NCBI GenBank assembly: GCA_964035545.1
Contig: OZ037767.1
Span: forward strand, 19,732,628-19,796,627
Direction: 5' to 3'
DNA length: 64,000 nucleotides
Source of the DNA: Bugula neritina
Taxonomy: Eukaryota > Animalia > Bryozoa
In this document: positions 9,733 to 64,000 of the stretch, piece by piece
How the letters are laid out: the number at the start of each line of letters is the position of its first letter
Numbering within the stretch: the stretch's first letter is position 1
The notes under the pieces: model-generated
Database searches by the model: none
Told to the model about the DNA's origin: nothing
What the model saw: only the letters and a program-made list of their open reading frames with translations
Position numbers and translations under genes: made by a program

Positions 9733-11310
9733 AAACTTGAGACAATCACACAAGGGTCAAGGATACACCTTATGCAATATATGAAAAAAAATGATGCAAT
9801 TTGTTTTATATTGTTTATGCAACTTGCAAAGAGGTACAAAACTTGATGTGATTTTTTCTTATTTTAACTATTTCATTATTATAAAATATTCCAATAAAAG
9901 TGAAATGGCAAACAGACAATTGCTATGACTACTGATTTCAGACTTAATGTTTACTGTTTTTAATTAGATGGAAACATTGCCTTATAACTCAATGGTTTTA
10001 AATCAGTCCACTATAACAAAATTCAGTAAATGCATGGCAGCAAAACAATGTTTAATGCTTGCAACAAATCTCCTTAATGTTAGTATATGCAAACCTATAA
10101 ATAAGATCAGCATTGAACATAACATAATTATATGTTCACCATCCAACATATGTAAATATATAAGATCACCATTGAACATAACTACAATAATTGTGAGCAA
10201 TACAAAGGCTCAGCTATAGCTTTGTCCCATCAAAACTAGTGCTTGCTTCACAATACTGTAGATCATCATTGATCTAACATAAGAATAACTGAACATTATC
10301 TGAGACTATTTGCTGTTCACCCTAATGCTATTTAGGCTAGTGAAATGAACAGATTTAGTTGCCGGCTAATTTTCACTGTAACACTAATATTTCTCTCTGT
10401 GTGATCTTTATTTATTCAATATACAAGTAATAAAAAGTACTAGCCTATATATGCAGCCAAGTTATCTTTTTAGCTGAATGGTTTCTACTACTACTCATAA
10501 GAAGGCACAAAATTAAATGCACATCACTTGTTTATACAGTGCCACCATCTTCATTATCTATAAACTGAATGCTTTTTTTTCATTTTTCATCATAAAATCT
10601 ATTTCACGGCAATGCTCTTCAGAAAGCCTTCAGTATAGGGAGCTACAAAAAAGCTGGGTCAACTTTCTCTATAGGCCGCAACTAATATATTATAACTTAT
10701 ATCATATATGTAATCTCCAGCATTCAAACTGGAAGCAGTTATAAGGGCATCATTCAAAAGACAATCTTTGTTTCCATCTTCGATTATGTAGTCATCACTG
10801 TCTAACTCATGTATCTTTTAAAGTGTGGTGCTTTAAAAGATACAAAAACACAAGCCAAGAGTTTTGTGTGAAAAGCAAGAGTTTATTAAAGAATCTCTAG
10901 CTGACATTTCCAGTTGGCTTTAAGCCCTTGGTATCATAAAACTAATATAGGAAAGATTGCTGATTTTCATTGCTTGCTATTCTTAGCTGCCGCAACACAC
11001 AGCCAAATAACTGAGCTGCCAAATAGTCTATAACTATTCGCTTGGCATTATGTAATGTATTATTTTTGTCATGTTTGTTTCTGTGCAGCTGTATTTCGTT
11101 AACTGCTGTATTAGAGATGAGTTAGGAATGCGATTAACTCACTAATGTGATAGTTGGCTGATCTGCTTTGACACAATATTGTACGTATTCATATTTGATC
11201 TCATTGTAGTCAACCGCTGCTTTATATGCTAATTATATGCTGCATAACGTCTTGTGAGTAATCTAGAACCTTCCTTATACCGCCTAAAGTATATTGTGTT
11301 TTGTAATACT

Positions 11311-11840
11311 TTGATATGTATTACCTTGTTATGTAGCACCTTGTTATGTATTACCTTGTAATGTATTACCTTGTTATGTATTACCTTGTTATGTGGTACC
11401 TTGTAATGTATTACCTTGTTATGTATTACCTTGTTATGTATTACCTTGTTATGTATTACCTTGTTATGTAGCACCTTGTTATGTATTACCTTGTTATGTA
11501 TTACCTTGTAATGTATTACCTTGTTATGTATTACCTTGTTATGTGGTACCTTGTAATGTATTACCTTGTTATGTATTACCTTGTTATGTATTACCTTGTA
11601 ATGTATTACCTTGTTATGTATTACCTTGTTATGTATTACCTTGTTATGTATTACCTTGTTATGTATTACCTTGTTATGTAATACCTTGTTATGTATTACC
11701 TTGTTATGTAGTAACTTGTTATGTATTACCTTGTTATGTGGTACCTTGTTATGTATTACCTTGTAATGTAGTACCTTGTTATATAGCACCTTGCAATGTA
11801 GCACCTTGTTATGTAGTACCTTGTTATGTATTACCTTGTT
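11311..11840. repeat. 15-bp minisatellite (TTGTTATGTATTACC)n, about 35 units
   Basis: Direct tandem units with few variants; explains ORFs 11229-11869. Confidence 0.97.
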
Positions 11841-12121
11841 TTGAGATACTTTATCATGTAAGAATGTAACACATCATATATGTTTTGGTCAGCAGCAATT
11901 GCCAATACCATTTGCATTTTAATTTTGAGTTTTTACATACTAAATATATGCTAAGGTAGACCACCACCCAATGATTTCTTCACATATAAATATATATTAG
12001 TTCACAATCTTTTTTACGACATAAAATTGTATAATTAGCTTGATAATCAATTATTCTTTGGTATAATTAGTTGTGGGGGTGGTAATGCCCACACTTCTCA
12101 GTTGAAAGGTTGTGAGCGTTA

Positions 12122-24205: not shown

Positions 24206-24397
24206 AACTATAACAAAACTTTAGTGGCCCAAACACAAATTATTAGTGACCAAATTACTAAGGAGCATTTAATTTGTCACACAATTAGTAATTGCAGGTT
24301 TCATTTCTTCTGCAGTAGTTACAGTATAGCAGGAATCTCAAAATATCACATGAGAGTAAATACCAGCTGCCTTGTGATTTATTGAGTTTAGTAGCTA

Positions 24398-24883
24398 TAG
24401 TATATAGTGTAGTATAGTATAGTGTAGTATAGTATAGTACTAGTGTAGTATAGTATAGTATAGTGTAGTATAGTACTAGTGTAGTATAGTATAGTGTAGT
24501 ATAGTATAGTACTAGTGTAGTATAGTATAGTATAGTGTAGTATAGTACTAGTGTAGTATAGTATAGTGTAGTATAGTATAGTACTAGTGTAGTATAGTAT
24601 AGTATAGTGTAGTATAGTACTAGTGTAGTACTAGTATAGTGTAGTATAGTATAGTATAGTATAGTACTAGTGTAGTATAGTGTAGTATAGTATAGTGTAG
24701 TATAGTATAGTATAGTATAGTATAGTATAGTATAGTATAGTATAGTATAGTATAGTGTAGTACTAGTATAGTGTAGTATAGTATAGTATAGTATAGTATA
24801 GTATAGTACTAGTGTAGTATAGTGTAGTATAGTATAGTACTAGTGTAGTATAGTATAGTGTAGTATAGTATAGTATAGTGTAG
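24398..24883. repeat. Pentanucleotide satellite (TAGTA/TAGTG with interspersed TAGTAC)
   Basis: Direct reading. Confidence 0.97.
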
Positions 24884-37383: not shown

Positions 37384-37688
37384 TGTGGTGGCTCGTGGAG
37401 CTACCAGCAACACAATACGCAAGGTTGCGTATTGACCCGGAACAATGTATTAGCCAATTAGCTAGGCTGTTTTATAAGTAATAGTAGCCGCTTCGCGCTA
37501 CTAGTTCAGTTGAGGATAGTGCTGTAAACTAAATAGACGTGTGTATCATTACTGTTGTACCTTGGATTTTTATTATGTATTCTTGTATTAAATATAACGA
37601 TATCTACTCGACTTAACTGGTGAAGTTTCTCTAGTGTTAAATAGACTCTCTTGGTGGCACATCAACCCTAAATCTGAAAACTATAACA
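37384..37688 (+). repeat. 5' LTR
   Basis: TGTGGTGG...CTATAACA, direct repeat of 44526-44830. Confidence 0.98.
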
Positions 37689-37689
37689 G

Positions 37690-37707
37690 TGGTGGCAGCG
37701 GTGGGAT
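37690..37707 (+). promoter_or_regulatory. Primer-binding site complementary to tRNA-Leu 3' end
   Basis: TGGTGGCAGCGGTGGGAT is the reverse complement of ATCCCACCGCTGCCACCA, the 3' end of metazoan tRNA-Leu(AAG/TAG type). Confidence 0.9.
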
Positions 37708-37721
37708 AGTGTATATCAAAG

Positions 37722-38588
37722 ATGGAGACTGAGAACGCTAGAATGCAACCACCCCCAATAGAAGGTGAGCGTAGAAATGCTGTTAATCCTGTGAATCATG
37801 AAGGAGAACAAGCTTATAGACATTGCTTGAAAGCTCCCACCTTTACTGGGTCGGAAGATGTCGAACAATTTATACAAGAATTTAGAGAGGTAATGGAAGT
37901 TGCTCAATGGCCGCATAGAGTGGCCCTCATTCAATTGCGGAGAGCGGTGACGGAGCAAGCCAAGCCGTACGGAGTGGGAACGGACGTAGACGGCATACTG
38001 GCTGCGCTGCGGGCCCGTTTTGGCACCTCCGTCATAGACGCTAGGACCAAGCTGGAGAGATTGTGCCGCACCCCGCGGACCTCGCTGCAAGAACATGCCG
38101 CGACGGTGAAGAAGCTGGCGCAGATTGCATATAGCGATCTGCCAGCACAACACCAAGAGCGTTACACTTATGACGCCTTTGTCCAGTCCCTAAACGACCT
38201 GGGCCTAGACCATCACCTACGAGCTAAAGGGATAACCAGAATAGAGGATGCCCTGAAGGCTGGAGAAGCTTACCTGTTGGCTACCCAAATGCATCGAGCA
38301 CAACGGAACCCACCAGTAGTTGGAGTCAGCGCTGCTCGGGCTACGACAGGCTCCGAAGCCCTCCCGCTGGAAGCCGAAGTGGACCGTATGGTAGAGATGC
38401 TGGGACAATTGGTGACCATTCTGGCCGGTGCTGGCCCCGGTCAGGCCTTGCGGATACCCCCAACACCTGTGGGGCAAGGCTGGAGTAGCGCTGATCAGGA
38501 CCAGGGACAGAAAGGACGACCCCAATACCAGGGGGCGTTAAACTGTCACGGCCCGCGGACACTCTCCCTCCCCGCGGGCCGCAACTAA
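37722..38588 (+). CDS. gag: Gag (288 aa)
   Basis: First ORF after PBS; LKAPTFTGSEDVEQFI..W..L..RFG capsid-like pattern; no canonical CCHC knuckle visible. Confidence 0.9.
   Translation: METENARMQPPPIEGERRNAVNPVNHEGEQAYRHCLKAPTFTGSEDVEQFIQEFREVMEVAQWPHRVALIQLRRAVTEQAKPYGVGTDVDGILAALRARFGTSVIDARTKLERLCRTPRTSLQEHAATVKKLAQIAYSDLPAQHQERYTYDAFVQSLNDLGLDHHLRAKGITRIEDALKAGEAYLLATQMHRAQRNPPVVGVSAARATTGSEALPLEAEVDRMVEMLGQLVTILAGAGPGQALRIPPTPVGQGWSSADQDQGQKGRPQYQGALNCHGPRTLSLPAGRN
38537..38581 (+). promoter_or_regulatory. Putative -1 ribosomal frameshift signal (G_TTA_AAC plus 10-bp GC stem-loop)
   Basis: Heptamer 38537-38543 is in gag phase; 5-nt spacer; stem 38549-38558/38572-38581; pol frame is -1 and open from 38495. 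Confidence 0.8.
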
Positions 38589-41500
38589 AGGAGTATGGTG
38601 GAACACGCCGTCGTCTGTCCGTACGGACACGGCGGAACATTCTACCCGAGTGGCAGGTACCACGCAGGACTAGTAGGCCCGCACAACGGCCCAGTACCTT
38701 TTCCCTGCCACTCGCTAACCGGTTTCACCGGTTACCTCGGGAGGAGGAGCCCGCCACTGAAATGGAGCCAGAAGGCCCAGTGGAGAGGCCCAAACCCCGC
38801 CGGCACCAACCTCGCCGCCGGAAGCCCCGTAAACCACGGGTGAAACCCCCGCCGTCCTGTCAAACCAGGACAGCACATGCGGGGGGGGTGAAAGTACAAC
38901 CACATGGAGAGAGCTATTTCCTACCCGGAAAGGTGGCCGGCAACGCCGTCACTTTCCTGCTCGACTCCGGTTGTACTACCAACCTTCTCAGCCGTAGAGT
39001 CTTTGAGGCACTGCCCCGCCGGGACAGGGATAGAGTACGACCGTATACTGGAGAACATGGCACCCTGGCAGACGGGTCATGTATCCCCTTTTATGGTATT
39101 ATCGAGCTCCCTGGGCGTGTCAGAGATCAGGCTGTACAGGAGACCTTTATCATAGGTCAACTGGAGGAAGATGCTATCCTCGGCATGCCCTTCTTGAAGC
39201 AACACCAGTGCCGAATAGATTTTAGTAAGTCGGTGGTGCTGATGGGCGGGCGAGAACTCGCCTGTGTGGATAAGTTTGGGCGTCCTCTGGTGGGCGGTGT
39301 TCAGGTAATTCGGAACTGCACCGTACCCGGACGCTCCAGAGCTACTATCCACTGCCGAGTGAACAGCAACCGGATAGCCAGGCTCGGGGTCGTTGAAAGC
39401 GCGCACGAAAAGATCCAACTCGCCAGTAGTTTAAACCGACTAACTGAGCGAGGGGAGGTCTTAGTGCAGTGCGTCAACCCCTTTACCGAGCCCATTGAGC
39501 TCCCAGCTGGGTCAATGCTGGGCCGGTTCCATTCCGTCCAGGAAGAGGACGTGGGCCCGTCGCTGGGTGACGCGACGGAGGCACCCCCTCGACACCCTAT
39601 TCAGGGACGAGGGGCAGTCCCGACACATCTCCGGGAGTTATACGAAACAGCCAGTGGCGGCTGCGCGAGTAACAGAGAACGCCAAGCTATGGCCAAGTTA
39701 CTACGCGACTACGGTGATGTGTTCAGCAGCGGGGAGAATGACGTGGGACTGACTGGAATTGTCAGACACGAAATACCGCTGACTGCAGGGACAGTCCCTG
39801 TCCGGCAGCCCACGCGCAGGCTGGGGCCGGAGAAAGAGAAGGAGGTTAGCCGACAAGTACGGGATCTTCTGGACCGGGGACTGATAGAGCCCGCCCATAG
39901 CGCGTGGAGCTCGCCGGTCGTACTGGTCCGGAAGAAAGACGGCAGTTGGCGGTTCTGTGTGGACTACCGCAAACTCAATAGCGTAACCATACAGGACGCC
40001 TACCCTCTACCTCGTATTGACGAGTCATTGGACGCCCTAGCCGGCAGCAAGTACTTCAGTACGTTAGACTTGCTAAGCGGCTATTGGCAGGTTCCTCTGA
40101 GTCCCGACGCCCAAGAGAAAGCGGCGTTTATTACACGGGACGGTTTGTGGAAGTGGAAGGTGCTGCCCTTCGGGTTAACCTCCGCCCCAGCCACCTTCCA
40201 GAGGCTGATGGAACAAGTCCTTAGCGGACTCCATTGGAAGACACTGCTGGTCTACCTCGATGATGTCATCGTAATCTCCCCAGACTTCGAGACACATGTC
40301 AGTCGTCTGCAGGAGGTTTTCGAGAGACTCCGAGGTGCCGGTCTTAAGCTCAAACCTTCCAAGTGCGCTCTGTTGCAGCCGGAGGTCAAGTACCTGGGGC
40401 ACGTTGTCGGTCGAAACGGCGTGGCAACGGATCCCGAAAAGGTACGGGCAGTAGAAGACTGGGTCACCCCTCAAGACTTGACCGGACTCCGGGCTTTCTT
40501 GGGGCTGGTAGGGTATTACAGGCAATACATACCAGACTTTGCGGGCATAGCCCAGCCGTTAAACCGGCTTACCGCAAAGGGAGTGACGTGGCAGTGGACT
40601 CCAGTCGAACAAGAAGCGTTCGACCGCCTCAAGGGCTGCCTCCTAACGGCGCCCGTCTTGGCCTACCCAGACCCCACTCTGGAGTACATCCTAGACACAG
40701 ACGCCAGTGACCAGAATGTTGGCGCTGTGCTGTCTCAAGTGCAGGAAGGCCGAGAAGTAGTAGTAGCCTACTACAGCAAGTCTCTCTCTCCCGCTGAACG
40801 AAATTACTGCACTACCCGCAAGGAGCTGCTGGCAGTAATCAAGTCAGTGAAGCACTTCAGACCATACCTATATGGCAGGAAGTTCCGGCTGCGTACGGAT
40901 CATGCCTCGCTGATCTGGTTGTGCAGGAGAGCAGAGCCCTCCAGTCAGGTCGCCCGGTGGCTCGAAATCCTAGCTGAATTCTCGTACCGGATCGAACACC
41001 GACCGGGCAAGAGACACAGCAATGCGGATGGGTTGAGTCGCCGACCTGACGGAGGTTGCAAACAGTGTCTCAACATCGAGAGGAGGGATGGAGGTCCCCC
41101 ACGATGCGAGTTGGAGACGCTGGCTCATCACGGAGCACCGTTTGACTGGGATCAAGGTCAACTCAGGCAAAGAGTTGATGAGTCCCCGGAGGATGTACAA
41201 AACCTCCGCGCCAACCCTGTACTGGCCGGTAATGTTCGAGAGCTGAAGAAGCTCCAAGAAGAGCTGCCGGGAGTCGTGGCAGACATCTACTGGGCCAAAA
41301 GGGAAGGGCGACGACCCAGCGAGGAACGCATACGACAGGGATGCGCCGAGTTCCGGCTATACTGTCAGCGTTGGGACTCGCTGCGGATCGGGCAGGATGG
41401 GTTGCTAACCATCTCTCTAGCTGCCAGCGGCAGACACCCGGAAAGGAAGAGGGTAGTCTGCCCCACAGCCATCCGCCGTGAGTTGATTTGGGATACTCAC

Positions 41501-43162
41501 AAGCAGGCCCACGCAGGGGTCAAGCGAGTGATATCCAAATTACGACTCCGGTGGTATTGGCCGCAGATGGAGCGTGACGTCCGACTCAGAGTCAAACGGT
41601 GTGAGATCTGCCAGGCCAGTAAGCATAGCCGCCCCCCTGGTGAAGCAGGACGGCGGAGGCTATATGCTGGTAGGCCCTGGCAAGTAGTCGCTGTAGACCT
41701 GGTCGGACCCATGCCCCTGACCCCCAGAGGCAATAATTGGATCCTAGTACTAACCGACCACTTTACTAGGTGGGCGGATGCTCTGGCTATCCCAGATGCA
41801 TCAGCCCCAACAGTGGCCAGGGCACTAGACCAACATGTATTCTGTTATTTTGGGCTTCCCGAACAGATACACTCTGATCAAGGCGCTCAATTCCAGTCTC
41901 AACTGATGAGCGACCTTTGCCACCTCTGGGGAGTAAATCAGAGCAGGACCACCCCCTACCACCCTCAAGGTAACGGGGTGGTGGAGCGCAACAACCGGAT
42001 GCTAGGTGATGCGCTCCGGAGTCTCCTCCTTGGACGAGGTCAAGAGGAATGGGATACGGTGTTGCCGCAAGTCATGCGTGCATACCGTAGCACCCCACAC
42101 ACCAGTACTGGTGAGACCCCAAACCTCTTGATGCTCGGGAGAGAGACTCGTGTCCCTGACCATCTCACCTATCACGTTCCGGAGCAGGATAACTCAGTCC
42201 ACGAGTATGCCAGTGAACTAGTGGAACGGATGAAGGCCGCACACGAGATACTGCGTCAACAGCAGTGGAAGGTGCGGCATGAAGATTCCGATGAACCACC
42301 CCTCTATCAAAGAGGAGATAAGGTGTGGATGGTCAATTACCGTAGGCGCCGCGGACAGGCTGATAAGCTGAAGCCTAAGTTCGTAGGCCCCTACGTGGTC
42401 GTCGAGGCTATGCCCAATCATACGTACAAGATTGAGCGCTCAGGACAGGTGTCTATCCAGAATGAGTCTCGCTTGAAACCGTATTGGGCTAGCCCTGACG
42501 GAGTGGGAGAAGCCCCCCCGTTGTTAGAGCCCAGGAGGCAGACAACGACGCGCGGGCAACGGCGGCATGGACCTGAATACGAAGTGGTCATACCGCGGGA
42601 GGAAAACTTGGTGAGAGAGGAGCGGCAGCTTTTGTCAACAGAAGCGTGTCCGCCACCGCCAAGTCTAATTCCATCACTTCCAGAAACCGAGCCGGTTCCG
42701 GAAGTGCAAACCCCCACGGAGGGAGGGGCTCCATCCGGAGAACAAGAAGAGGTGACCACTAACGGTGAAGTAGAGACGCCATTAGAAGCCCCTACTAACG
42801 AACCGGCAAGCGTGTCACCCCCCCTAGAAAGGGGACAGCGTACGAGGAAGCCCCCACCGTATTTGAAAGACTTCATATGTGACTGCATTAGAAGCGGCGC
42901 ACATGAAAGTCTAGGGGAAAACCGTACGATAAAATGTTGGAGTTGTGAACCCCACGCAAATATCAACTTTTGCGAGGGCGGAATAGTGGGAGGAATTAAT
43001 GCGCGTAAAGCAAATAGTTCCGACCTCGTGCCTCAGAAACGATGCTCAGCCTTTTCTTATGCTGACATCGCCAAAGGCAGACGTATCTCACAACCAGCTC
43101 CAACCTTACCAAGAACGTTGAGTATGGACATTAATACCGAGTTCCCAGGTAAGCCAGTATAA
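38537..43162 (+). CDS. pol: Pol polyprotein (protease, RT, RNase H, integrase), -1 frame relative to gag; first ATG at 38762
   Basis: LLDSGC; WSSPVVLV, FCVDYRKLN, LPFGL, YLDD; LDTDAS, KELLAV, RTDH, NADGLSR; H..H..CEIC, VDLVGP, HSDQG, VERNNR, PKFVGPY; no stops. Confidence 0.97.
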   Translation, partial: VKLSRPADTLPPRGPQLKEYGGTRRRLSVRTRRNILPEWQVPRRTSRPAQRPSTFSLPLANRFHRLPREEEPATEMEPEGPVERPKPRRHQPRRRKPRKPRVKPPPSCQTRTAHAGGVKVQPHGESYFLPGKVAGNAVTFLLDSGCTTNLLSRRVFEALPRRDRDRVRPYTGEHGTLADGSCIPFYGIIELPGRVRDQAVQETFIIGQLEEDAILGMPFLKQHQCRIDFSKSVVLMGGRELACVDKFGRPLVGGVQVIRNCTVPGRSRATIHCRVNSNRIARLGVVESAHEKIQLASSLNRLTERGEVLVQCVNPFTEPIELPAGSMLGRFHSVQEEDVGPSLGDATEAPPRHPIQGRGAVPTHLRELYETASGGCASNRERQAMAKLLRDYGDVFSSGENDVGLTGIVRHEIPLTAGTVPVRQPTRRLGPEKEKEVSRQVRDLLDRGLIEPAHSAWSSPVVLVRKKDGSWRFCVDYRKLNSVTIQDAYPLPRIDESLDALAGSKYFSTLDLLSGYWQVPLSPDAQEKAAFITRDGLWKWKVLPFGLTSAPATFQRLMEQVLSGLHWKTLLVYLDDVIVISPDFETHVSRLQEVFERLRGAGLKLKPSKCALLQPEVKYLGHVVGRNGVATDPEKVRAVEDWVTPQDLTGLRAFLGLVGYYRQYIPDFAGIAQPLNRLTAKGVTWQWTPVEQEAFDRLKGCLLTAPVLAYPDPTLEYILDTDASDQNVGAVLSQVQEGREVVVAYYSKSLSPAERNYCTTRKELLAVIKSVKHFRPYLYGRKFRLRTDHASLIWLCRRAEPSSQVARWLEILAEFSYRIEHRPGKRHSNADGLSRRPDGGCKQCLNIERRDGGPPRCELETLAHHGAPFDWDQGQLRQRVDESPEDVQNLRANPVLAGNVRELKKLQEELPGVVADIYWAKREGRRPSEERIRQGCAEFRLYCQRWDSLRIGQDGLLTISLAASGRHPERKRVVCPTAIRRELIWDTHKQAHAGVKRVISKLRLRWYWPQMERDVRLRVKRCEICQASKHSRPPGEAGRRRLYAGRPWQVVAVDLVGPMPLTPRGNNWILVLTDHFTRWADALAIPDASAPTVARALDQHVFCYFGLPEQIHSDQGAQFQSQLMSDLCHLWGVNQSRTTPYHPQGNGVVERNNRMLGDALRSLLLGRGQEEWDTVLPQVMRAYRSTPHTSTGETPNLLMLGRETRVPDHLTYHVPEQDNSVHEYASELVERMKAAHEILRQQQWKVRHEDSDEPPLYQRGDKVWMVNYRRRRGQADKLKPKFVGPYVVVEAMPNHTYKIERSGQVSIQNESRLKPYWASPDGVGEAPPLLEPRRQTTTRGQRRHGPEYEVVIPREENLVREERQLLSTEACPPPPSLIPSLPETEPVPEVQTPTEGGAPSGEQEEVTTNGEVETPLEAPTNEPASVSPPLERGQRTRKPPPYLKDFICDCIRSGAHESLGENRTIKCWSCEPHANINFCEGGIVGGINARKANSSDLVPQKRCSAFSYADIAKGRRISQPAPTLPRTLSMDINTEFPGKPV

Positions 43163-44253
43163 GTCTTGTATTCCTATTCATGGAAACGGGCTCGATGCCA
43201 GTAGATTCTGAACTAATTCAGCAGATTGAATCAGAATTACTGGGAACCACGTTTCATGTGAATGACGATGAAGACACTGTAATGGCCGATGGTCTGTTAG
43301 ACCTGGAGCTAGACACTGTTCTTGGTCAGTCCACACATGATTCATCAGTTCCTCGAGTGCATTCCAAAAGCTGTGACTCTCAGGCTAGCAACGGTCGACA
43401 GTCACTAGAATTAGGTTGTAAAGATCCACCGCGATCTAACACTAATTCTACTTTTGTAGACACACTCGCGCCCGTCTCTCCGGGCATGCCTTCTCTAGAG
43501 ATGGCGTGGGACTCAGAGCCGGCCCCAACAACTTCTACCACCAGGCAACTGCCACCCCAGTTGGAAGCAACCTCCAACTGGATTACCCCTGCCACAGAGA
43601 GAGAGATCAGGACCCATCAAGGAGGTGAGAGTAATCGTGAATGCAACCTCTGCCAACAGCGATTCACGACCCACCGCAGACTAAAAGTACACTTGCCGCA
43701 ACACTACATCACCACTTTCTGCCCTTGCGGAGAATATAGCTACAATCGTGATTACCTGTTGCGGCACCAACGTACTATGCAGTGTTATCAAGGGCATGTC
43801 TATGAAGTCGACGAATCATCCTATCCTGCCTTTCTCAACGCCATCAAACCACTCATCACTGACTCAGCTCGGCTATCTCGCCTGGAGCAAGGCTTCCCTT
43901 CCCCGCGGCCCATCATCTCTGGAGCCGCAGATAAACCTACCCAGTCTACTAACTCTCCACCCCACAGCCCTCTACGCACGCCGCATACCTTTCCTCGTGT
44001 CGTACTACAGAGGGTAGACACAAATGCATATACACTCCCTCCTCCCCTTCCATCCTCGGAGCGGAAAAGACACAGACAGCCGACTTCCTCTCGCTCGTCC
44101 CCCTGGGCCCGCAACCTACGTGAAGTAGAAGCTAGGGCGCACGACTTGGAGCAAGAAGTGTACAGGCTGGCCCCACGAGTACAGGCTGCATCCAGTGAAC
44201 TCAAATACTTACAGGAGTCTATTAAACGCATGAAGCGTGCGGCCCGCAGTTAA
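43124..44253 (+). CDS. ORF3: C2H2/C2HC zinc-finger plus coiled-coil accessory protein; predicted exons 43124-43148 and 43460-44253 (272 aa); unspliced alternative 43180-44253 (357 aa)
   Basis: CNLC..F..HRRLKVHLPQH and CPC..H..C fingers, RKRHR basic patch, heptad C-terminus; CCAG|GTAAGC donor and ACTAAT..TTTTGTAG|A acceptor, both phase 1; homologue in element 2. Confidence 0.8.
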
Positions 44254-44514
44254 CTCGAGTCTACCTACAACTCCATACTACTCATTCCCCTACCTCTCTG
44301 TGGCATTCCCTACCGTAATGGTGGCACGTACTCTACATGTAGATAGGACCTTCCCTTGCTTATTACTTAGTGTGCACGTTATATATACCTGTATATTTTT
44401 TATCAGTTGTTGTTTTTTTGTATATACTTTTATACTGTTCTCTTACCCCCCCCCACAACGAAGTATACGTTTTTTTATGTGAGTTTTATTTTATCAGAAA
44501 GTGGGCTTTCTGCT

Positions 44515-44525
44515 GGAGGGGGCAG
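44515..44525 (+). promoter_or_regulatory. Polypurine tract
   Basis: GGAGGGGGCAG immediately before the 3' LTR. Confidence 0.8.
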
Positions 44526-44830
44526 TGTGGTGGCTCGTGGAGCTACCAGCAACACAATACGCAAGGTTGCGTATTGACCCGGAACAATGTATTAGCCAAT
44601 TAGCTAGGCTGTTTTATAAGTAATAGTAGCCGCTTCGCGCTACTAGTTCAGTTGAGGATAGTGCTGTAAACTAAATAGACGTGTGTATCATTACTGTTGT
44701 ACCTTGGATTTTTATTATGTATTCTTGTATTAAATATAACGATATCTACTCGACTTAACTGGTGAAGTTTCTCTAGTGTTAAATAGACTCTCTTGGTGGC
44801 AAATCAACCCTAAATCTGAAAACTATAACA
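44526..44830 (+). repeat. 3' LTR
   Basis: Direct repeat of 37384-37688 with one mismatch (GGCAC/GGCAA). Confidence 0.98.
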
Positions 44831-45064
44831 ATATAGCCTAATATGATGATTGTGTTATATACAGGAGCCAGTTCTGGTATTGGAAGAGCCACTGCTATCC
44901 ACTTTGCATCTTTTGGATCTAGACTGGCTCTCTGTGACAGAGATGAACCAAACCTTCAGGTTGGCTATACTTTAATAAACTATGTTGTAACATAATATGT
45001 TTATTACTATAATAAGCTTATTAGGTATGTTATATAACCTGTTTATAGGAGACTGTGAGTCATT

Positions 45065-45840
45065 CACCGGCTTTCCATGTACCGATCTCAGATCGATCTC
45101 GGCGAGATCGATCCATGGAAAGACGCCAAAGATCGATCTCAGTCGTTCTGAGCTGGTCGGTCTGTAGAGCTCGAACTCAGATCGATCTCATGTCAATAAG
45201 ACCATGGAAAGACGCCAGATCGATCTGAGAAGTAGAAAAAGACTGCGCGCTACAATGTTGTCTGCTAATAAAAATGATAACTTAGTGATAATGACTAAGC
45301 AAAGTATTAAATAATTATGATAGCCACCTTTTCAGATGCCAAAACTTTGACTTTCAGTACAATGATTAAGAAAACTCAATTATATGCAGTAGAAGGTAAA
45401 AAAATGGGAGAATTTAAATTGAATTTAAGTGACTATTAAAACTTAGTTTCATTAGCTATTTTCTTTGTAATTTTAAGCCCAACAGTCCTGTAAGTTTATT
45501 AATAATCTGCAAGACAGCCATTAATTTTATATAAGCTGTCTAGCTAAAAAATTAAAATTGATTATTTTAAATTGGCCAAATTACCATACACTGAAAGCTT
45601 TGCTGCGTATAGTTTATAGCTGGGATTAAATTTTAGACTATGACCATCTTGTTTTCAACAGTAGTAGCTTTAATCACTCAAATAGGTGAACAAATTATAC
45701 TTTTAAAGTATCCTTCACTTAGGAGGAGGCAACTTCGCGAGATCGATCTGCCACTCTCATGGAAAAACGATCGATCTAAGCACATTTCTCAGATCGATCT
45801 CGCTGAGATCGATCTGAGATCGGTACATGGAAAGCCCGTG
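45065..45840. mobile_element. MITE inserted in SDR-D exon 3
   Basis: ~50-bp TIR CAC(C/G)GGCTTTCCATGTACCGATCTCAGATCGATCTC(G/A)GCGAGATCGATC with repeated AGATCGATCT palindromes; exon resumes at 45841; TSD not clean (ATT/TAT), superfamily unresolved. Confidence 0.88.
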
Positions 45841-48184
45841 TATGTAAAGGAGCTGGTGATGTCATCACTATAGTTGGAGATCTTACTATTGAATCTGATG
45901 TGGTGAGAATTATTGAGAAGACAATAGAACACTACAAACAGCTGGATGTGTTGGTAAGAACTAGCGTTACTTGTTGAAAATGTTTCTGTGATCTGAGAGC
46001 ATATAGTATAGGATGTTTGTTTCGTTTATTACAAGTATGTGTTAAGAATATCAATTTAACAAAATTGTTATATTTCTATTTAATTCTATAGTCTACAATA
46101 CTATATCTGAGTCTTACATTACATTCACTTACTACAACCTGCAGCTCATGCTAAACCAAACACATTAATCTACACTAGCCTCTAAAGTCTAAACAATACT
46201 TTCATACATACAATATGTTGAATATAAAAACTCACACATGTTTATAGTCATCATCACTGTGGGAAATCTCTGATAGAAAGGTTTTTTTAAATCAGGCTAA
46301 GGACTTATTCATATCTATGTGATTGAATGCTCTTCCTCACATTACCCATGACTGTGTTTAACAGCACCATCGATGAGACTTATCAGGGTGGGTTCGAACC
46401 CATGACTGTGTTTGCTAAGCACATTATATTAATTAAGTATATTTGCACCTAATTTTCAGCTAGAATTTCTACTTAATGGTTTTAGATATATAATGATGTA
46501 AAAAGTAGTTGAACAGTGATAGAGTCTATGACATTACTAAATAAGAAACTATAATATATTCATGTATTTATATTATTTATAAAGGTTAATAACGCAGGAA
46601 TTGGAAGATTCAATAGCATTACAAATGGGATATTAGAACAATTTGACTTGATAATGGCTACCAACGTCAGAACTGTGTACCATCTGACAAAACTGGCTGT
46701 TCCACATCTGATTGAGAGTAAAGGATTCATTGTCATCACATCTAGTGTGGCATCAAAAATGTCGGTAGGTGAAACTTTATTTCATTGATTGTAACTTTGA
46801 AAAACAACCACAATTGGTTTTATAGAACAACTGCTGCAGGAAACTATAATATGACATAGCCTATTGCTGGATAATTTTAGTTTCATTTAGTATGTAATTA
46901 GCTATTTAAAGTAAATCTAAGAAGCAATATTTAAAAATAATACTCAACAGTTTTTATGTTCTTTTTTAAAAAAATATATGTTTGTAATCCTATTTTGTTG
47001 CCATGATATAAAGTTATACACATGGCAGCAAAAACTGAATAAACTCTCAATTCTGTTTCACTGAATTACATAAATACCTTACTACTATTTAATATTTATA
47101 CTTTTTATATTACTTACCCTTCTTCAACATAATTCACAATTACTCAATATCACTCACTATCATAGTCACTATCACTCAATATAGCTCACTCTCACTCACA
47201 ATGACTCATCATAATTTAATAACACTTCCCATCACTATCACCTTTCCCTCATCACTAACAATAAGCATTTTATTAATCTACCAAACTATTGTTTTAGTGC
47301 CCCACAGTTGTGGCATACAGCATGTCAAAAGCTGCTATAGATCACTTTGCAAGGAGTATAGCCTTAGATCTTGCTCCTAAACAAGTGAGGGTCAACACTG
47401 TCAAGTATGTATTCAGTTCAAACTTTTTTGTATGAAAATATGAAAATAGACTTTTTGTTCACGTTTTCAATATGTATATCGTTTATGTTACACATCATAT
47501 TATGCTGTTATCTTAGGGTTACATATTTATAATGTTGTTGCTGTTCAATTGACTTACAGTTTGAAGGGAAATCATAATGGCTTCCTGTTTGAAAACTTCT
47601 AATTTAACTATCTTTTAGATAAAAAAACAAATAAAGTTTTATTATTCACCAAACAAGCATTCTCTCACGCCTATACACATTAATAACTCTCATGACTTTG
47701 TTATTAGCTCTCCTAACCATATTCTGATGTCACAGTATGACAGCAAATTATAGACCTATGAGAGCTTTTTGTAGCATATATAAGGAATAATAACAGTTAG
47801 ATACATTATTGTGAGCTTAACTATCAGAATAAATATTGAGTGGGTTTTTGACTACTTGGTGGTCCATATAAACCAAAAAACATTTTATATTTTAATCAAA
47901 CTATTCAGAAAAAGGATAATTAGATGAAACATATCATATATATGTACTTGTAAATTTTGTTGATATAAAATTTAAAAACAAAAGTCCTAAGCTGGTGTAA
48001 AATAATGTTGTGGAATTATTTTAGCCCAGGTATTATTGCAACAAAAATCTATGAAGGAGCAATGCCAAAAGATGATGTACCAGCGGTAAGTAAAGCAACA
48101 ATTTCCTGTAGCATTCACTCTTTTGTAATGTGTTCACTAACATGGCAAGTCTATCATAACTTATAAATATATATACCTTGATAC

Positions 48185-48996: not shown

Positions 48997-49215
48997 TTGT
49001 ATTGTAATGTATTGCATTGTAATGCATTGACTGTATTTTTTGTATTGTATTGCATTGTATTGTGCTGCATTGCATGACATTGTACTGTATTGTAGTGTAT
49101 AGCAATGTTTTTAATTTCATTCTAATGCATTGTATTAAATCGTATTGTATTACATTGCATTGCATTGCATGAAGTTGCATTGATTTGAATTGTATTATAT
49201 TGCATTGTATTGTAT
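48997..49215. repeat. Degenerate pentanucleotide repeat (CATTG/TATTG)n
   Basis: Direct reading; paralogue at 55010-55118. Confidence 0.9.
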
Positions 49216-49697
49216 AATACTATACCAATTGTATCTTGAAGCGTTTTATGTTGTAGTGTAATAAATTGTATAGACTAACATCAAACGGACCATGCATCAG
49301 GTATTCCTTAAATTAATGTTGCAGAGAAGCAAATAGTTCTATGAACCTCTCAAAATAGGAGTTCATTTGCCTCCATATTATACTAAAAATTAGATGTTTG
49401 GAAAATTAATTGTTTTATTGTTTTCATAAGGAGGTAAAATAGTTCAATGATTTAAAAGAGGTTTCTATTTATTAGTTCAACTGTTATACATTATATAAAG
49501 CAATAATTAGCATTTAGCAAGCTCTGAGATCCTTAATAATTATAGCTTTAAAAGTATAATATCATCCTATGAGTTATGTGAAAGGCAAAATATGCGTAGA
49601 AACTATTAGGTTATTTGCAAGACATTGTAATTCCGACAAACAACAATATTGTATAAAAAAATATACAATAACTTCAAGAAAACCTCCATGAAAATAC

Positions 49698-54804: not shown

Positions 54805-55009
54805 CATTTTCTGTTTGCTTTGTTTTACACCAACAGATGGACTATATTCTCATAGGATGTTAATTTTCTACATTTTAGGAAACTTTCTTGTAAGGGATTT
54901 TGTTATATGCATTTCCTGTTCCTGGTTTGACTTGCATAAAACAAGATTTGTTTAATACAAACACTAACTCTACCAGAACAGCATCTGCTATCTTGTTTGT
55001 GTTGTGATT

Positions 55010-55118
55010 TTATTGCATTGCATTGTATTGCATTGCATTGCATTGTATTGCATTGCATTGTATTGTATTGCATTGTATTGTATTGTATTGCATTGCATTG
55101 CATTGCATTGCATTGCAT
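55010..55118. repeat. Pentanucleotide microsatellite (CATTG/TATTG)n
   Basis: Direct reading. Confidence 0.95.
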
Positions 55119-56299
55119 TTCATAATATACCAATTGTATCTCTTCAATAGATGTTGTAGAGAAACAAACAACTCCATGAACTTTTCAAATTATAGGAGTT
55201 CATTTGCCTTCATGTTATACAAAAGATTTAAATATTTTGAAAACAGATTGTTTTATTGTTTCCATAAGATTTATAGACCTTATTGCGAAGATAGGCATAT
55301 TTTTATTGTCATTATATACACTAACTAGTGCCAATTGCTCAAATAAATGCTTGTTTTCAGTTTCATGGAATAGAAAAGTGAAAACCACAAATATTTCTAA
55401 AGTTTATCTCTTTCAATATACAGACAATTTCAAATAAATTAGTCCTTCAAATTGCTTGCAAATGTCTATCACATCTGCTTTCACCTTCTAAATATATACA
55501 AAATGGCAACACTTGTACATTTTCAGTTATTACTCAGCCTTCATTTTCACTCCACAAGCTCTGCATTGATTGGTGTTAAATTCAATTCGTTATACAAAAA
55601 TCAAGAGTTGCATATTTTTGTCCTTTTAAGAAATAACTATACTAAGCCTACACACCTCGTGAACAACTATAAAATGTAGTAGAATAGTTGTGCAGTGGCC
55701 GACTTAACAAAACTAAGAAGAAATTTCCCAGTCGGAAGCCAAATAGATAACACTGAAGGAGATGTTGATTGATAAACAATGTCTAACCTGTCCTAATCAA
55801 TCTAATTGAGGTCTATGACCTGTATAATAACATCTCATTACACTTGTTATTTGACTCCATATGATTAAAATGGTTGATTATTTCAATGATATTCACCATT
55901 GCTGCTTTATAAACATGTAAAATAAATCAACTGATGTCACTTTGTCATATTATGCTGTAGAGACTCAGTCATCATGATAAACAACTCAATTTGATATTTG
56001 ACTAAAATATAGAGGCTCATTTTCATGTAGAAGTACAATGTCTAAATTTTTGAGCAGAAGCTCTGAAGATCTTTTTTGTCAATCCAAAGACTAACACCAT
56101 GAAAGTCAGTCAAGTGTTGCAGCCTTTGCTCGTTAAAACTAAATGCGTAAACATTTTGCTCACTAAAATAGAGCTAAAATTTTATCTGTAAGTTTTTTGG
56201 CATAAGTTAAACTGCCCGTGTGAATGTTGAACCATGCTGTGCCATTGTTTTTGTAATATAAATTGCTTTATCTATTTTGCAAATTGAAATAATATTTAT

Positions 56300-58290: not shown

Positions 58291-58597
58291 TGTTAAGATT
58301 TTCAGATTTAGGGTTGATGTGCTATCCAGAGAGTCTATTTATCTACTATAGAACTGCACCAGGATAAGTCGAGTGAACGAGTATATTTTATACACAACTA
58401 TACATTATAAAAACACGATACATTATTTCCAAACGAGTTACACATCTAATCTATTTCACACTCTAGCTTCGACTGAGTTAGCAGCGGGAAACTACAATTG
58501 CTGCTAACTATCAACTACGCTAATTGGCTATCCATTGTTCCGGGTCAATTACGCGACCCTACATGTTGTGCTGCTGGTAGTTCCACGAACCACCACA
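58291..58597 (-). repeat. 3' LTR of second Gypsy (307 bp)
   Basis: Minus strand TGTGGTGGTTCGTGG...CATCAACCCTAAATCTGAAAATCTTAACA; alignable to but clearly diverged from the 37384 LTR. Confidence 0.93.
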
Positions 58598-58885: not shown

Positions 58886-59963
58886 CTAGAGTCCTTGTTG
58901 GGCACGCCGGTGCTTGGCTTGGCATGTACGCAGTTTCCGTTTCATACGGCATACGGATCCCTTTAGCTGGAAGAGTCCTGTGGTAGTGTTAAGTAGATCT
59001 GGTGCCAGCTGGGTGAACTCTTCTTGTAATCGTAGGAGGCGTTCTTCTACCGTAGCCAGGCGTACTGGGTCTGGGGACGGTGTCCGTCTGCGGCGCAAGG
59101 GTGGACTGGGGGACCTGGTTCGTCTCTTCGCCGGTGTAGGGGAGATCTCTCCTTCTTCTGGATATGTAATTTCCTCGGGGGTGTATGTAATTTGAGGACG
59201 GTCAGACACCAACGGGGATTGTTGGCGGGCGTTGTCTAACACACGTTGGAACCCCGAGGACAGAACGGCTAATAGCATGGCCTTCTTCACCAGAGGTCGT
59301 ATAAGTGTGAGGAACTCCGGGTACAGCTTAGCGTCGACCACATAGTTTTCTCCAGGGAAACAGCCCGCCGCTCGGTGTCTGGTGACGGGGTAGGGATACA
59401 CATCATGGTACCCGCAGGGGCAGAATGTTAGTAGGAGATGAGCATTGACGTGTAGTTTAAGGGAGCGGTGAGAGGCGCAATCTTCACCACAGATCTGGCA
59501 TCTCGTCCGTCCTCTGGACCCCCAGGCTGTTTCTATTTCTTCTTCTGTTTGTGGAGACACCCACCGCCAACGGCGGCGTAGTGGCTCAGGCCGGTCACCA
59601 CTAGCATACTCCTCTGGATACGGAGCGGGAAGTGTTCTATCCCGTACCCTGGTTGTAGCGGGTCGAGTGTAATCTGAAAAAGTTTCAACAGTGTTAATAC
59701 AGTACACTGCTGTGTTGTCAGCTTGAACAGCTTGGCAACTCCTAATTCAGTTACCTCGTAGAGATTTATGGTAGTGAATAGTCAGATAGAACACGTATTG
59801 CAATGAGATTATAAAAATCTCTAAGTCAAACTGAGTTCTTACTACGGTATTTCACTAACCTATCTCCAGCTCGATTGACTCAGTGAGTCAGAGCTGAGCG
59901 ATGCAATCTAGTTTCGTATTAAGATATAGTTAACTCACCCCACGATCTGTTGTCGTAAGACAT
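58886..59963 (-). CDS. ORF3 homologue: zinc-finger plus coiled-coil protein; predicted exons 59963-59939 and 59673-58886 (270 aa)
   Basis: CQIC..HRSLKLHVNAH, TFCPCG..H..C, basic patches, coiled-coil end; no in-frame ATG upstream of the fingers without splicing; TGGG|GTGAGT donor and TTTTTCAG|A acceptor, both phase 1. Confidence 0.78.
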
Positions 59964-59987
59964 ACTGAATGTGTGAAATGGTTTGAA

Positions 59988-62900
59988 CTACTGCTTAGAA
60001 ACACGTCTACTCCTGACTGCATCAGCGTATGAAAAGATCGAGCAACGTGGTTGGGGTGCGTGATTAAGACTTTGCGCACCCGGCGGATGAATTTTATTTC
60101 TATTTCCGCCGATGCAAAAGTTGATATTTCCGTGGTGTTGACAACTCCCACATTTGCTCGATTCTTTTCTCGTACGGTTTTCCCCTAGACTTCCATGCGT
60201 GCCGCTTTTAACGCAGTCACATACGAAGTCCTTCAAGTATGCGGGGGGTTGCCTCGTACGCTGTCCCCTTTCTAGGGGGGGGTGACACGCTTGCCGGTTC
60301 GTTAGTAGGGGCCTCTAATGGCGTCTCTACTTCACCGTCAGCAGTCACCTCTTCTTGTTCTCCGGATGGAGCCCCTCCCTCCGTGGGGGTTTGCACTTCC
60401 GGAACCGGCTCGGTTTCTGGAAGTGATGGAATTAGACTTGGCGGTGGCGGGCACGCTTCTGTTGACAAAAGCTGCCGCTCCTCTCTCACCAAGTTTTCCT
60501 CCCGCGGTATGACCACTTCGTATTCAGGTCCATGCCGCCGTCGCCCGCGCGTTGTTGTCTGCCTCCTGGGCTCTAACAACGGGGGGGGGCTTCTCCCACT
60601 CCGCCGGGGCTAGCCCAATACGGTTTCAAGCGAGACTCATTCTGGATAGACACCTGTCCTGAGCGCTCAATCTTGTACGTATGATTGGGCATAGCCTCGA
60701 CAACCACGTAGGGGCCTACGAACTTAGGCTTCAGCTTATCAGCCTGTCCGCGGCGCCTACGGTAATTGACCATCCACACCTTATCTCCCCTCTGATAGAG
60801 GGGTGGTTCATCGGAATCTTCGTGCCGCACCTTCCACTGCTGTTGGCGCAGTATCTCGTGTGCGGCCTTCATCCGTTCCACTAGTTCACTGGCATACTCG
60901 TGGACTGAGTTATCTTGCTCTGGAACGTGATAGGTGAGATGGTCGGGGACACGAGTCTCTCTCCCGAGCATCAAGAGGTTTGGGGTCTCACCAGTACTGG
61001 TGTGTGGGGTGCTACGGTATGCACGCATGACTTGCGGCAACACCGTATCCCATTCCTCTTGACCTCGTCCAAGGAGGAGACTCCGGAGTGCATCACCTAG
61101 CATCCGGTTGTTGCGCTCCACCACCCCGTTACCTTGAGGGTGGTAGGGGGTGGTCCTGCTCTGATTTACTCCCCAGAGGCGGCAAAGGTCGCTCATCAGT
61201 TGAGACTGGAATTGAGCGCCTTGATCAGAGTGTATCTGTTCGGGGAGCCCAAAATAACAGAATACGTGTTGGTCTAGTGCCCTGGCCACTGTTGGGGCTG
61301 ATGCGTCTGGGATAGCCAGAGCATCCGCCCACCTAGTAAAGTGGTCGGTTAGTACTAGGATCCAATTATTGCCTCTGGGGGTCAGGGGCATGGGTCCGAC
61401 CAGGTCTACAGCGACTACTTGCCAGGGCCTACCAGCGTATAGCCTCCGCCGTCCTGCTTCACCAGGGTGGCGGCTATGCTTACTGGCCTGGCAGATCTCA
61501 CACCGTTTGACTCTGAGCCGGACATCACGCTCCATTTGTGGCCAATACCACCGAAGTCGTAATTTGGACATCACTCGCTTGACCCCTGCGTGGGCCTGCT
61601 TGTGAGTATCCCAAATCAACTCACGGCGGATGGCTGTGGGGCAGACTACCCTCTTCCTTTCCGGGTGTCTGCTGCTGGCAGCTAGAGAGATGGTTAGCAA
61701 CCCATCCTGCCCGATCCGCAGCGAGTCCCAACGCTGACAGTATAGCCGGAACTCGGCGCATCCCTGTCGTATGCGTTCCTCGCTGGGTCGTCGCCCATCC
61801 CTTTTGGCCCGGTATATGTCTGCCACGACTCCAGGCAGCTCTTCTTGGAGCTTCTTCAGCTCTCGAACATTACCGGCCAGTACAGGGTTGGCGCGGAGGT
61901 TTTGTACATCCTCCGGGGACTCATCAACTCTTTGCCTGAGTTGACCTTGATCCCAATCAAACGGTGCTCCGTGATGAGCCAGCGTCTCCAACTCGCATCG
62001 TGGGGGACCTCCATCCCTCCTCTCGATGTTGAGACACTGTTTGCAACCTCCGTCAGGTCGGCGACTCAACCCATCCGCATTGCTGTGTCTCTTGCCCGGT
62101 CGGTGTTCGATCCGGTACGAGAATTCAGCTAGGATTTCGAGCCACCGAGCGACCTGACTAGAGGGCTCTGCTCTCCTGCACAACCAGATCAGCGAGGCAT
62201 GATCCGTACGCAGCCGGAACTTCCTGCTATATAGGTATGGTCTGAAGTGCTTCACTGACTTGATTACTGCCAGCAGCTCCTTGCGGGTAGTGCAGTAATT
62301 TCGTTCAGCGGGTGAGAGAGACTTGCTGTAATAGGCTACTACTACCTCTCGGCCTTCCTGCACTTGTGACAGCACAGCGCCAACATTCTGGTCACTGGCG
62401 TCCGTGTCAAGGATGTACTCCAGAGTTGGGTCTGGGTAGGCCAAGATGGGCGCCGTTAGTAGGCAGCCCTTGAGGCGGTCGAACGCTTCTTGTTCGACTG
62501 GAGTCTACTGCCACGTCACTCCCTTTGCGGTGAGCCGGTTTAACGGCTGGGCTATGCCCGCAAAGTCTGGTATGTATTGCCTGTAATACCCTACCAGCCC
62601 CAAGAAAGCCCGGAGTCCGGTCAAGTCTTGGGGGGTGACCCAGTCTTCTACCGCCCGTACCTTTTCGGGATCCGTTGCCACGCCGTTTCGACCGACAACG
62701 TGCCCCAGGTACTTGACCTCCGGCTGCAATAGAGCGCACTTGGAAGGTTTGAGCTTAAGACCGGCACCTCGGAGTCTCTCGAAAACCTCCTGCAGACGAC
62801 TGACATGTGTCTCGAAGTCTGGAGAGATTACGATGACATCATCGAGGTAGACCAGCAGTGTCTTCCAATGGAGTCCGCTAAGGACTTGTTCCATCAGCCT

Positions 62901-64000
62901 CTGGAAGGTGGCTGGGGCGGAGGTTAACCCGAAGGGCAGCACCTTCCACTTCCACAAACCGTCCCGTGTGATAAACGCCGCTTTCTCTTGGGCGTCGGGA
63001 CTCAGAGGAACTTGCCAATAGCCGCTTAGCAAGTCTAACGTACTGAAGTACTTGCTGCCGGCTAGGGCGTCCAATGACTCGTCAATACGAGGTAGAGGGT
63101 AGGCGTCCTGTATGGTTACGCTATTGAGTTTGCGGTAGTCCACACAGAACCGCCAACTGCCGTCTTTCTTCCGGACCAGTACGACTGGCGAGCTCCACGC
63201 ACTATGGGCGGGCTCTATCAGTCCCCGGTCCAGAAGATCCCGTACTTGTCGGCTAACCTCCTTCTCTTTCTCCGGCCCCAACCTGCGGGTGGGCTGCCGG
63301 ACAGGGACTGTCCCTGCAGTCAGCGGTATTTCGTGTCTGACAATTCCAGTCAGTCCCACGTCATGCTCCCCGCTGCTGAACACATCACCGTAGTCGCGTA
63401 GTAACTTAGCCATAGCTTGGCGTTCCCGGTTACTCGCGCAGCCGCCACTGGCTGTTTCATATAACTCCCGGAGATGTGTTGGGACTGCCCCTCGTCCCTG
63501 AATAGGGTGTCGAGGGAGTGCCTCTGTCGCATCACCCAGCGACGGGCCTACGTCTCCCTCCTGAACAGAGTGAAAACGGCCCAGCATCGACCCAGCCGGG
63601 AGCTTGATAGGCTCGGTAAAGGGGTTGACGCACTGCACTAAGATCTCCCCTTGCTCAGTCAGCTGATTCAGACTGCTGGCAAGTTGGATCTTTTCGTGCG
63701 CGCCTTCAACCACCCCGAGTCCAGAGATCCGGCTACTATTCACCCTGCAGTGAATGGTAGCCCGGGAGCGGCCTGGTATGGTACGGTTGCGTACCACTTG
63801 CACACCTCCCACTAAAGGGCGGCCGAACTTGTCGACGCAGGCGAGTTCTCGCCCGGACATCATCATTGCAGATCTGCTAAAATCTATGTGACATCCGTGC
63901 CGTTTAAGGAACGGCATCCCGAGGATAGCATCCTCCTTGAGCTGACTGACGATGAACGTCTCTTGGATCGTTTGATCGCGGACTCGTCCCGTCAGCTCAA
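59988..64000 (-). pseudogene. pol: Disrupted pol of second Gypsy
   Basis: TGG changed to TAG at 62505-62507; C-run 9 vs 7 at 60581-60589 and 8 vs 7 at 60275-60282 relative to element 1 (the homopolymer indels could be sequencing error). Confidence 0.9.

Follow-up and report, generated by a model that had tools for sequence, protein, structure and literature searches.

A zinc-finger third open reading frame with a predicted intron in two Gypsy retrotransposons of the bryozoan Bugula neritina

INTRODUCTION

A described counterpart of the gene treated here is CERV, a nuclear accessory protein that the Caenorhabditis elegans Ty3/Gypsy element Cer1 makes from a spliced mRNA and that is reported, in the available portion of the account, to be without homologue outside nematodes (PMC10309623). 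We analysed a stretch of 64,000 nucleotides (nt) of the bryozoan Bugula neritina (GenBank assembly GCA_964035545.1, contig OZ037767.1, positions 19,732,628 to 19,796,627 of the forward strand), referred to as the window and numbered from its first letter, in which two Gypsy elements with long terminal repeats (LTRs), element 1 and element 2, carry a third open reading frame (ORF3) between pol and the 3' LTR. The likeness to CERV would lie in a nuclear Gypsy accessory protein with a leucine zipper, a nuclear localisation signal (NLS) and a cysteine finger that comes from a spliced mRNA while unspliced RNA keeps the splice sites; CERV, however, is described in the same excerpt as a protein of 517 amino acids (aa) from five exons, some common with gag, which has a C4 loop besides domains called H, M and G-protein-like (PMC10309623), whereas ORF3 encodes 270-357 aa with C2H2 and C-x-C..H..C fingers, has its first exon in the pol frame and is at times fused to Pol. 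Membership of the CERV family was rejected on the ground that exon 1 lies in the pol frame, that the only in-phase gag donor ranks 63 of 427 and that the ORF3 model has no G-protein-like domain, a distinction drawn from the published description of CERV.

If the reading that we prefer holds, ORF3 would also resemble the foamy-virus Tas/Bet unit, a 3' unit whose unspliced RNA gives a DNA-binding activator and whose spliced RNA gives a dampener (PMC13220597, in the part available). By contrast with ORF3, that unit belongs to a retrovirus with env, and homology was neither found nor expected; Bet is, in the same part of the text, largely a different protein from Tas (PMC13220597), while the two ORF3 forms would have the DNA-binding core and the coiled coil in common; and foamy viruses use an internal promoter, whereas no TATA-like or CCAAT box precedes exon 1 in elements 1 and 2. 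Bdelloid LTR retrotransposons likewise carry a captured third ORF past pol that is not env, but in the excerpt at hand these are GDSL esterases, DEDDy exonucleases and coiled-coil or transmembrane ORFs, and the words 'zinc' and 'finger' do not occur there (PMC5408684). The sORF1 of Drosophila MDG1/412 elements is, according to the available part of its description, a small nuclear element-encoded accessory protein with a predicted DNA-binding motif and an unsettled role, but differs in being about 110 aa long, of helix-turn-helix type, upstream of gag and unspliced (PMC11952523). The word 'zinc' did not occur in the accessible text of an eLife errantivirus survey (PMC13524379), nor 'ORF' or 'zinc' in that of mollusc and annelid element surveys, and our literature searches returned no account of this family, which Repbase, Dfam, GyDB and subscription papers, outside that search, may mention. 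The earlier remark that this is not a described family thus agrees with the literature searched and with the lack of a Pfam model: spliced non-env accessory genes are already known in LTR elements, and the ORF3 family is apparently undescribed.

RESULTS

ORF3 as a conserved gene outside the env class

A preliminary description of this DNA had proposed that both elements carry a conserved accessory gene other than env, and the comparison of the two products bears this out. They are identical at 81 of 241 aligned residues (34%), with a local score of 273 against 38.6 +/- 6.5 (maximum 67) in 300 shuffles; the eight predicted zinc-ligand columns are kept in 68-78 of 78 aligned rows; and identity at the three codon positions of 101 core codons is 0.47, 0.57 and 0.28, third positions being saturated. 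From such comparisons ORF3 is almost certainly a real gene under selection. The 19-residue hydropathy maximum is 0.45 in one product and 1.5 in the other, with no transmembrane segment in either. Env of the errantivirus or retrovirus type was ruled out because the products are without a hydrophobic segment, their model consisting of a zinc-finger core and one helix.

Homologues of the element 1 type (family A) numbered 58 and those of the element 2 type (family B) 65, and a profile search for relatives gave 290 clusters at 50% identity, the best 150 of which were examined. A Pfam scan placed no family above its cut-off, few of the 78 members matching C2H2 models weakly; PF00096 scored 16.7-19.1 bits on the ORF3 finger, below its gathering cut-off of 25.2, although the ligand spacing of finger 1 is canonical for C2H2. 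A sequence look-up found nothing like ORF3, a scan of viral and metagenome contigs with the ORF3 alignment found no locus, and matches in the ESM Atlas were to clusters without a name and to C2H2 families of a generic kind, which serve as leads only. Among 30 relatives looked up, the only ones with a named organism were bryozoan gene models containing the core (Watersipora subatra XP_067940963/4 and XP_067944745; Bugula neritina KAF6040922 and KAF6040923). Two of these models have an extra N-terminal region in common across the two genera, which suggests that the bryozoan models are host genes. Two core copies per protein were seen in P0134/P0267, P0174 and P0220/P0274, bryozoan gene models among them.

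Fold and layout of the ORF3 protein

The 127-residue core was predicted to fold with a predicted local distance difference test score of 94, and its fingers superposed on DNA-bound tandem C2H2 pairs over 50-57 residues with Z of 3.0-3.5 and, for most top rows, a root-mean-square deviation of 2.4-2.9 Å. The likeness to Kaiso, ZBTB and CTCF covers about 50 finger residues at Z 3.0-3.5; unlike in those proteins, the second finger of ORF3 is of the C-x-C..H..C form and the fingers are embedded in a 120-residue domain. A VIA fold search with the whole model returned coiled coils alone, and the heptad pattern reached z of 3.5 and 4.0 in the two ORF3s and at least 2 in 8 of 19 members. Basic Arg-rich patches are present in both proteins. 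A 40-aa window with net charge of −7 or below lies ahead of the core in 22 of 27 distant members, versus after the core in 1 of 17. An acidic segment, tandem fingers, a basic patch and a terminal coiled coil together form the layout of a dimeric transcription activator. The ORF3 product is probably nuclear and is predicted from the model to dimerise through the coiled coil; the architecture favours a transcription regulator over an anti-silencing or targeting factor, and we put such a regulatory role at even chances or marginally better.

Association with Gypsy integrase

The proposed link between ORF3 and Gypsy pol was confirmed in related elements. A metagenome scan with the integrase gave 19 loci, and the core profile matched 7 of them, on the same strand and 600-900 nt past the integrase. 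Ten of the 19 loci have 1 kb or more of downstream DNA, and all 7 matches are among these; they represent three families rather than seven independent cases. The remaining three of the ten are L008, where Pol finishes in a divergent Cys/His stretch to which the profile gives no score, and L016 and L017, with more distant integrases. The core forms the in-frame end of Pol in L002, L010, L012 and protein P0273, whereas in L006, L007, L009 and L015, which are one family, a stop and an AT-rich spacer set it apart from Pol as an ORF that has an ATG of its own; in 4/4 loci a TATA-like box stands 78-81 nt ahead of that ATG. The Pol-fused versions keep a Met ahead of the acidic stretch. A search for longer fused forms scored none, although it was a weak search, P0273 being one such form; pol and integrase scans of viral and prokaryote collections gave no locus. 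The integrase tree, built without L017, L018 and L019 (short matches) and without element 2, has a base that favours neither a fused-first nor a free-first order. L008 (1125-7631) is a Gypsy pol whose long tail has a divergent Cys/His finger and an acidic region at its end; the insert between the RNase H and integrase of this pol is, judging by its motif, presumably dUTPase-like.

Predicted splice sites

The two-exon structure described earlier ahead of both ORF3s was reproduced in every part: an AGT-ATG at 43124 (+) and 59963 (−) with exactly 25 coding nt each, donors CAG/GTAAGC (43148) and GGG/GTGAGT (59939), introns of 311 and 265 nt, acceptors ...CTTTTGTAG/A (43460) and ...CTTTTTCAG/A (59673), and, after splicing in silico, reading frames of 272 and 270 aa that each contain a single stop. 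Both first exons are in frame with pol, and pol of element 1 reads through its exon 1 to a stop at 43162. The two introns differ in length modulo 3, yet each restores the frame with its 25-nt exon. Scoring matrices were derived from the dehydrogenase genes that the host has in the window (24 donors, 17 acceptors). By these the donor of element 1 stands first among the 427 GT sites of that element and the acceptor second among 571 AG sites, while the element 2 acceptor ranked 1 of 443. A phase-1 gag donor at 37764, as for an env-like splice, is in frame but ranked 63 of 427. A second in-frame acceptor at 43235 was rejected, homologue translations giving it no support.

In family A, 37 of 38 rows that cross the acceptor read V/L/S/I followed by D/E/A, the pattern that a phase-1 TAG or CAG acceptor forces, and the 38th carries a deletion at this place. 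In family B the pattern holds in 7 of 8 aligned rows, and another eight start with F-S-D or L-L-D at this point. The rows of both families are translations rather than DNA and related to one another, which lowers their weight. An L/V versus S alternation is seen in 2 of 316 column pairs of family A, and L/V/I versus S at the acceptor in both families. On the donor side, P0082 starts with V-S exactly 88 codons (265 nt) before the acceptor, resembling the start of the element 2 intron, the first residues of P0143 are an exon-1-like peptide, and one public run lists no variant at 43113-43177 or 43415-43479; among the joints listed for that run none falls at the intron, which speaks neither for nor against splicing. 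Of the proposed conservation of both splice sites in other copies, the acceptor half is thus borne out by protein rows of both families, and the donor half, for which P0082, P0143 and the variant-free stretch speak, more weakly. By this reading of the sequences the acceptor is very probably used and the 25-nt exon likely so; the acceptor is well supported and the donor moderately so, that of element 1 better than that of element 2. In run X1 one contig agrees with the window as far as the donor (window 43154) and then continues with 230 different bases; it may come from a further subfamily that has this exon 1 but another intron.

The intron of element 1 is itself a reading frame

The preliminary description overlooked that the element 1 intron contains three in-frame ATGs, the first at 43180, which gives an unspliced ORF of 357 aa. 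The intron-encoded segment is acidic, with 14 D/E and 0 K/R in its first 55 residues. In 20 of 58 family-A proteins the intron frame is uninterrupted after its first Met, versus 25 of 58 that reach the coiled coil, counts whose bias from gene calling tells against them, and pairwise identity in family A is 0.74 for the intron segment versus 0.70 for the core. Of 20 variant rows, two before the ATG and one in exon 2 were left out; among the 17 scored in the intron frame, 11 fell in third positions, 10 were synonymous and none made a stop (p 0.008, 0.017), and it detracts from this result that the data are one run, possibly the window's own sample, with three of the 17 in one codon. Such a pattern indicates that the intron frame of element 1 is under coding selection.

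As had been stated before, element 2 has no in-frame ATG ahead of its fingers, the only Met residues of the stop-to-stop frame being at 157 and 268, and its close homologues P0059, P0060 and P0099 likewise have no Met there. By contrast, 23 of 28 family-B homologues have a Met shortly before the core, and no donor-acceptor pair comparable to those in the window was evident in L002, L006, L009, L010 and L008, scored with the matrices of the window's host. The claim that the protein depends on splicing was therefore too broad: the intron ATG would let the element 1 type be read unspliced, and splicing appears to be a lineage option rather than a family-wide feature, obligatory only in the subfamily of element 2. 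Nor is the retention of an intron through retrotransposition the special problem it had been taken for, since LTR elements produce accessory mRNAs by splicing and still package the unspliced form, as the available text on Cer1 CERV describes (PMC10309623).

The two elements compared

Element 1 is a Ty3/Gypsy LTR retrotransposon, with protease, reverse transcriptase, RNase H and integrase between two LTRs, a primer-binding site and a target duplication, and is a full, young copy: its LTRs differ by 1 base and an ATAT duplication stands on both sides (Table 1). Its primer-binding site resembles what we take to be tRNA-Leu. The gag-position ORF is without a CCHC knuckle or Pfam match, and a domain scan found no chromodomain in pol. 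ORF3 exon 1 starts the last 13 codons of the pol frame.

The pol of element 2 is interrupted by one stop and two frame breaks, and its frame has a TAG nine codons ahead of the exon 1 ATG. The 95% pol identity between the two elements extends to about 42983 in element 1 numbering, and blastn found no match between them in the ORF3 region from there to the LTR. ORF3 and LTR would then have been exchanged jointly on a near-identical pol, which fits a regulator paired with its target and equally fits simple linkage.

Table 1. Positions of the parts of elements 1 and 2 in the window
Feature	Position	Strand	Remarks
Element 1, complete Gypsy copy	37384-44830	+	LTRs, target duplication, pol domain order
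Element 1 5' LTR	37384..37688	+	305 nt, TG..CA, ATAT target duplication ahead
Element 1 primer-binding site	37690..37707	+	
Element 1 gag-position ORF	37722..38588	+	288 aa
Element 1 pol frame	38495..43162	+	Protease, reverse transcriptase, RNase H, integrase; Gypsy order
Predicted ORF3 exon 1	43124..43148	+	25 nt, phase 1, pol frame
Predicted intron	43149..43459	+	311 nt; CTAAC/ACTAAT branch-like motifs 43436-43446
Open frame within intron	43180..43459	+	93 aa, acidic, continuous with exon 2
Element 1 ORF3 exon 2	43460..44253	+	
Folded core	43549..43929	+	127 aa: N-terminal W-helix, C2H2 finger, C-x-C..H..C finger, VD strand, helices
C-terminal long helix	44101..44247	+	Heptad pattern (predicted coiled coil), basic NLS-like patch upstream
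Element 1 3' LTR	44526..44830	+	Followed by ATAT
Element 2 3' LTR	58291..58597	-	About 75% identical to element 1 LTR
Element 2 ORF3 exon 2	58886..59673	-	
Element 2 predicted intron	59674..59938	-	265 nt, each of the three frames with a stop
Element 2 predicted exon 1	59939..59963	-	25 nt
Element 2 pol	59964..64000	-	95% nt identical to element 1; 5' part beyond window edge

Other features of the window

At least five short-chain dehydrogenase paralogues lie on both strands between about 14000 and 54500, one of which has element 1 inserted in its first intron. At 45061-45844, within a dehydrogenase gene, 53-nt inverted arms that are 94% complementary stand 678 nt apart, a possible miniature inverted-repeat transposable element. 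An intact ORF of 1462 codons at 4391-8779 (+), with an EADT..DTD motif and a cysteine-rich tail, has no Pfam match at E <= 0.01; we take it to be a transposon-like ORF common in marine invertebrates. Short-period tandem repeats at 11229-11873, 24285-24839, 49034-49230 and 54982-55153 give long spurious ORFs.

DISCUSSION

The reading that we place first, at somewhat less than even chances, is that ORF3 encodes a nuclear DNA-binding regulator of the element's own transcription, for which retention of the intron would yield an acidic form and splicing a form without the acidic segment. A subgenomic RNA would start in or upstream of the pol tail. With the intron kept, the ATG at 43124 would open no more than an upstream frame of 13 codons; the 357-aa form would start from the ATG at 43180, and its acidic segment would make it an activator. 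With the intron removed, the 25-nt exon would supply the start of the 272-aa form, which could act as a weak activator or as a dominant-negative partner. The lineage of element 2, its intron frame closed, would make the short form alone. The intron would persist because unspliced genomic RNA is packaged.

Apart from the limits on homologue rows, open-frame counts and variants given with those data, several observations weigh against this reading. Neither element has a TATA-like or CCAAT box in the 300 nt before exon 1. The element 2 donor scores 0.4 and ranks 65 of 346 under the host matrix, a low rank that we ascribe to a small host set without G at +3 (only 24 donors, one gene family), and stronger donors, which have no in-frame ATG, lie near it. 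Comparison of the core fold returned nothing at Z >= 5, which does not in itself prove a new fold, and Foldseek nothing at E <= 0.001. C2H2 fingers also bind RNA and protein, and in four loci or proteins, from three lineages, the core is no more than the Pol end.

The RNA-binding capacity of such fingers leads to an unlikely alternative, a Rev- or CERV-like protein that is made from spliced RNA, binds intron-containing RNA through its fingers, oligomerises and promotes nuclear export. An element with strong splice sites must export its unspliced RNA, as the CERV of Cer1, with its leucine zipper, NLS and cysteine finger, is described as doing in the available text (PMC10309623), and both ORF3 proteins have basic Arg-rich patches, element 2 being able to make only the spliced short form. 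However, the core also occurs past integrase in elements without an evident intron pair, the recurrent acidic N-terminus would be left unexplained, the H, M and G domains described for CERV differ, and no conserved export signal was demonstrated. The Pol fusions speak instead for a targeting or tethering module attached to integrase, an alternative that we find rather improbable. Since exon 1 is in frame with pol, splicing of full-length RNA at these sites would join the Pol of element 1 to the fingers encoded by exon 2, as in the fused relatives L002, L010, L012 and P0273; the pol frame of element 1 is open through exon 1, and chromodomains in chromoviruses occupy the same position at the integrase tail. 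Against this stand the family of four loci in which ORF3 starts from an ATG of its own, past a stop and an AT-rich spacer, the stop ahead of exon 1 in the pol frame of element 2 and the Met that fused versions retain before the acidic stretch; moreover, a spliced full-length RNA would tend to lose the intron.

The joint divergence of ORF3 and LTR on a 95% identical pol would also fit an arms race, with ORF3 counteracting silencing from sites on the element's DNA, where it would attract chromatin enzymes or keep them from acting, its acidic segment an interaction surface rather than an activation domain. The nuclear DNA-binding layout fits this equally, but exchange of the whole 3' module explains the divergence just as well and Pfam scans gave no silencing-related domain, so that we give this explanation little credence. 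Still less credible is a real gene that is never spliced, in which the splice-like motifs are by-products of coding and the ORF3 of element 2 has lost its start. The family-A intron is indeed coding, and element 2 is a damaged copy whose donor is weak under the host matrix; yet the element 1 donor and the acceptors stand at the top of their rankings, the L/V/I versus S alternation marks the acceptor in both families, two introns of different length modulo 3 both restore the frame with a 25-nt exon, and the absence of Met extends to P0059, P0060 and P0099.

Returning to a DNA-binding regulator made in two forms, a broader conjecture, in our view doubtful, is that a widespread invertebrate Gypsy group encodes its own transcription factor, at the end of Pol or as a free gene, that a coding intron here turns it into an activator and a dominant-negative repressor in a Tas/Bet-like circuit of an element without env, and that bryozoans have turned the domain into host genes. 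Element-encoded regulators are a hallmark of complex retroviruses and barely known in LTR retrotransposons without env. ORF3 represents a defined domain family with three architectures (Pol-fused, free ORF and intron-split), and a young, intact copy comes with exact predictions: two junctions, two isoforms and an activation segment inside an intron. This makes the control by a retrotransposon of its own transcription testable, and would outline how such a domain can pass from one setting to another, whether Pol, free gene or host gene.

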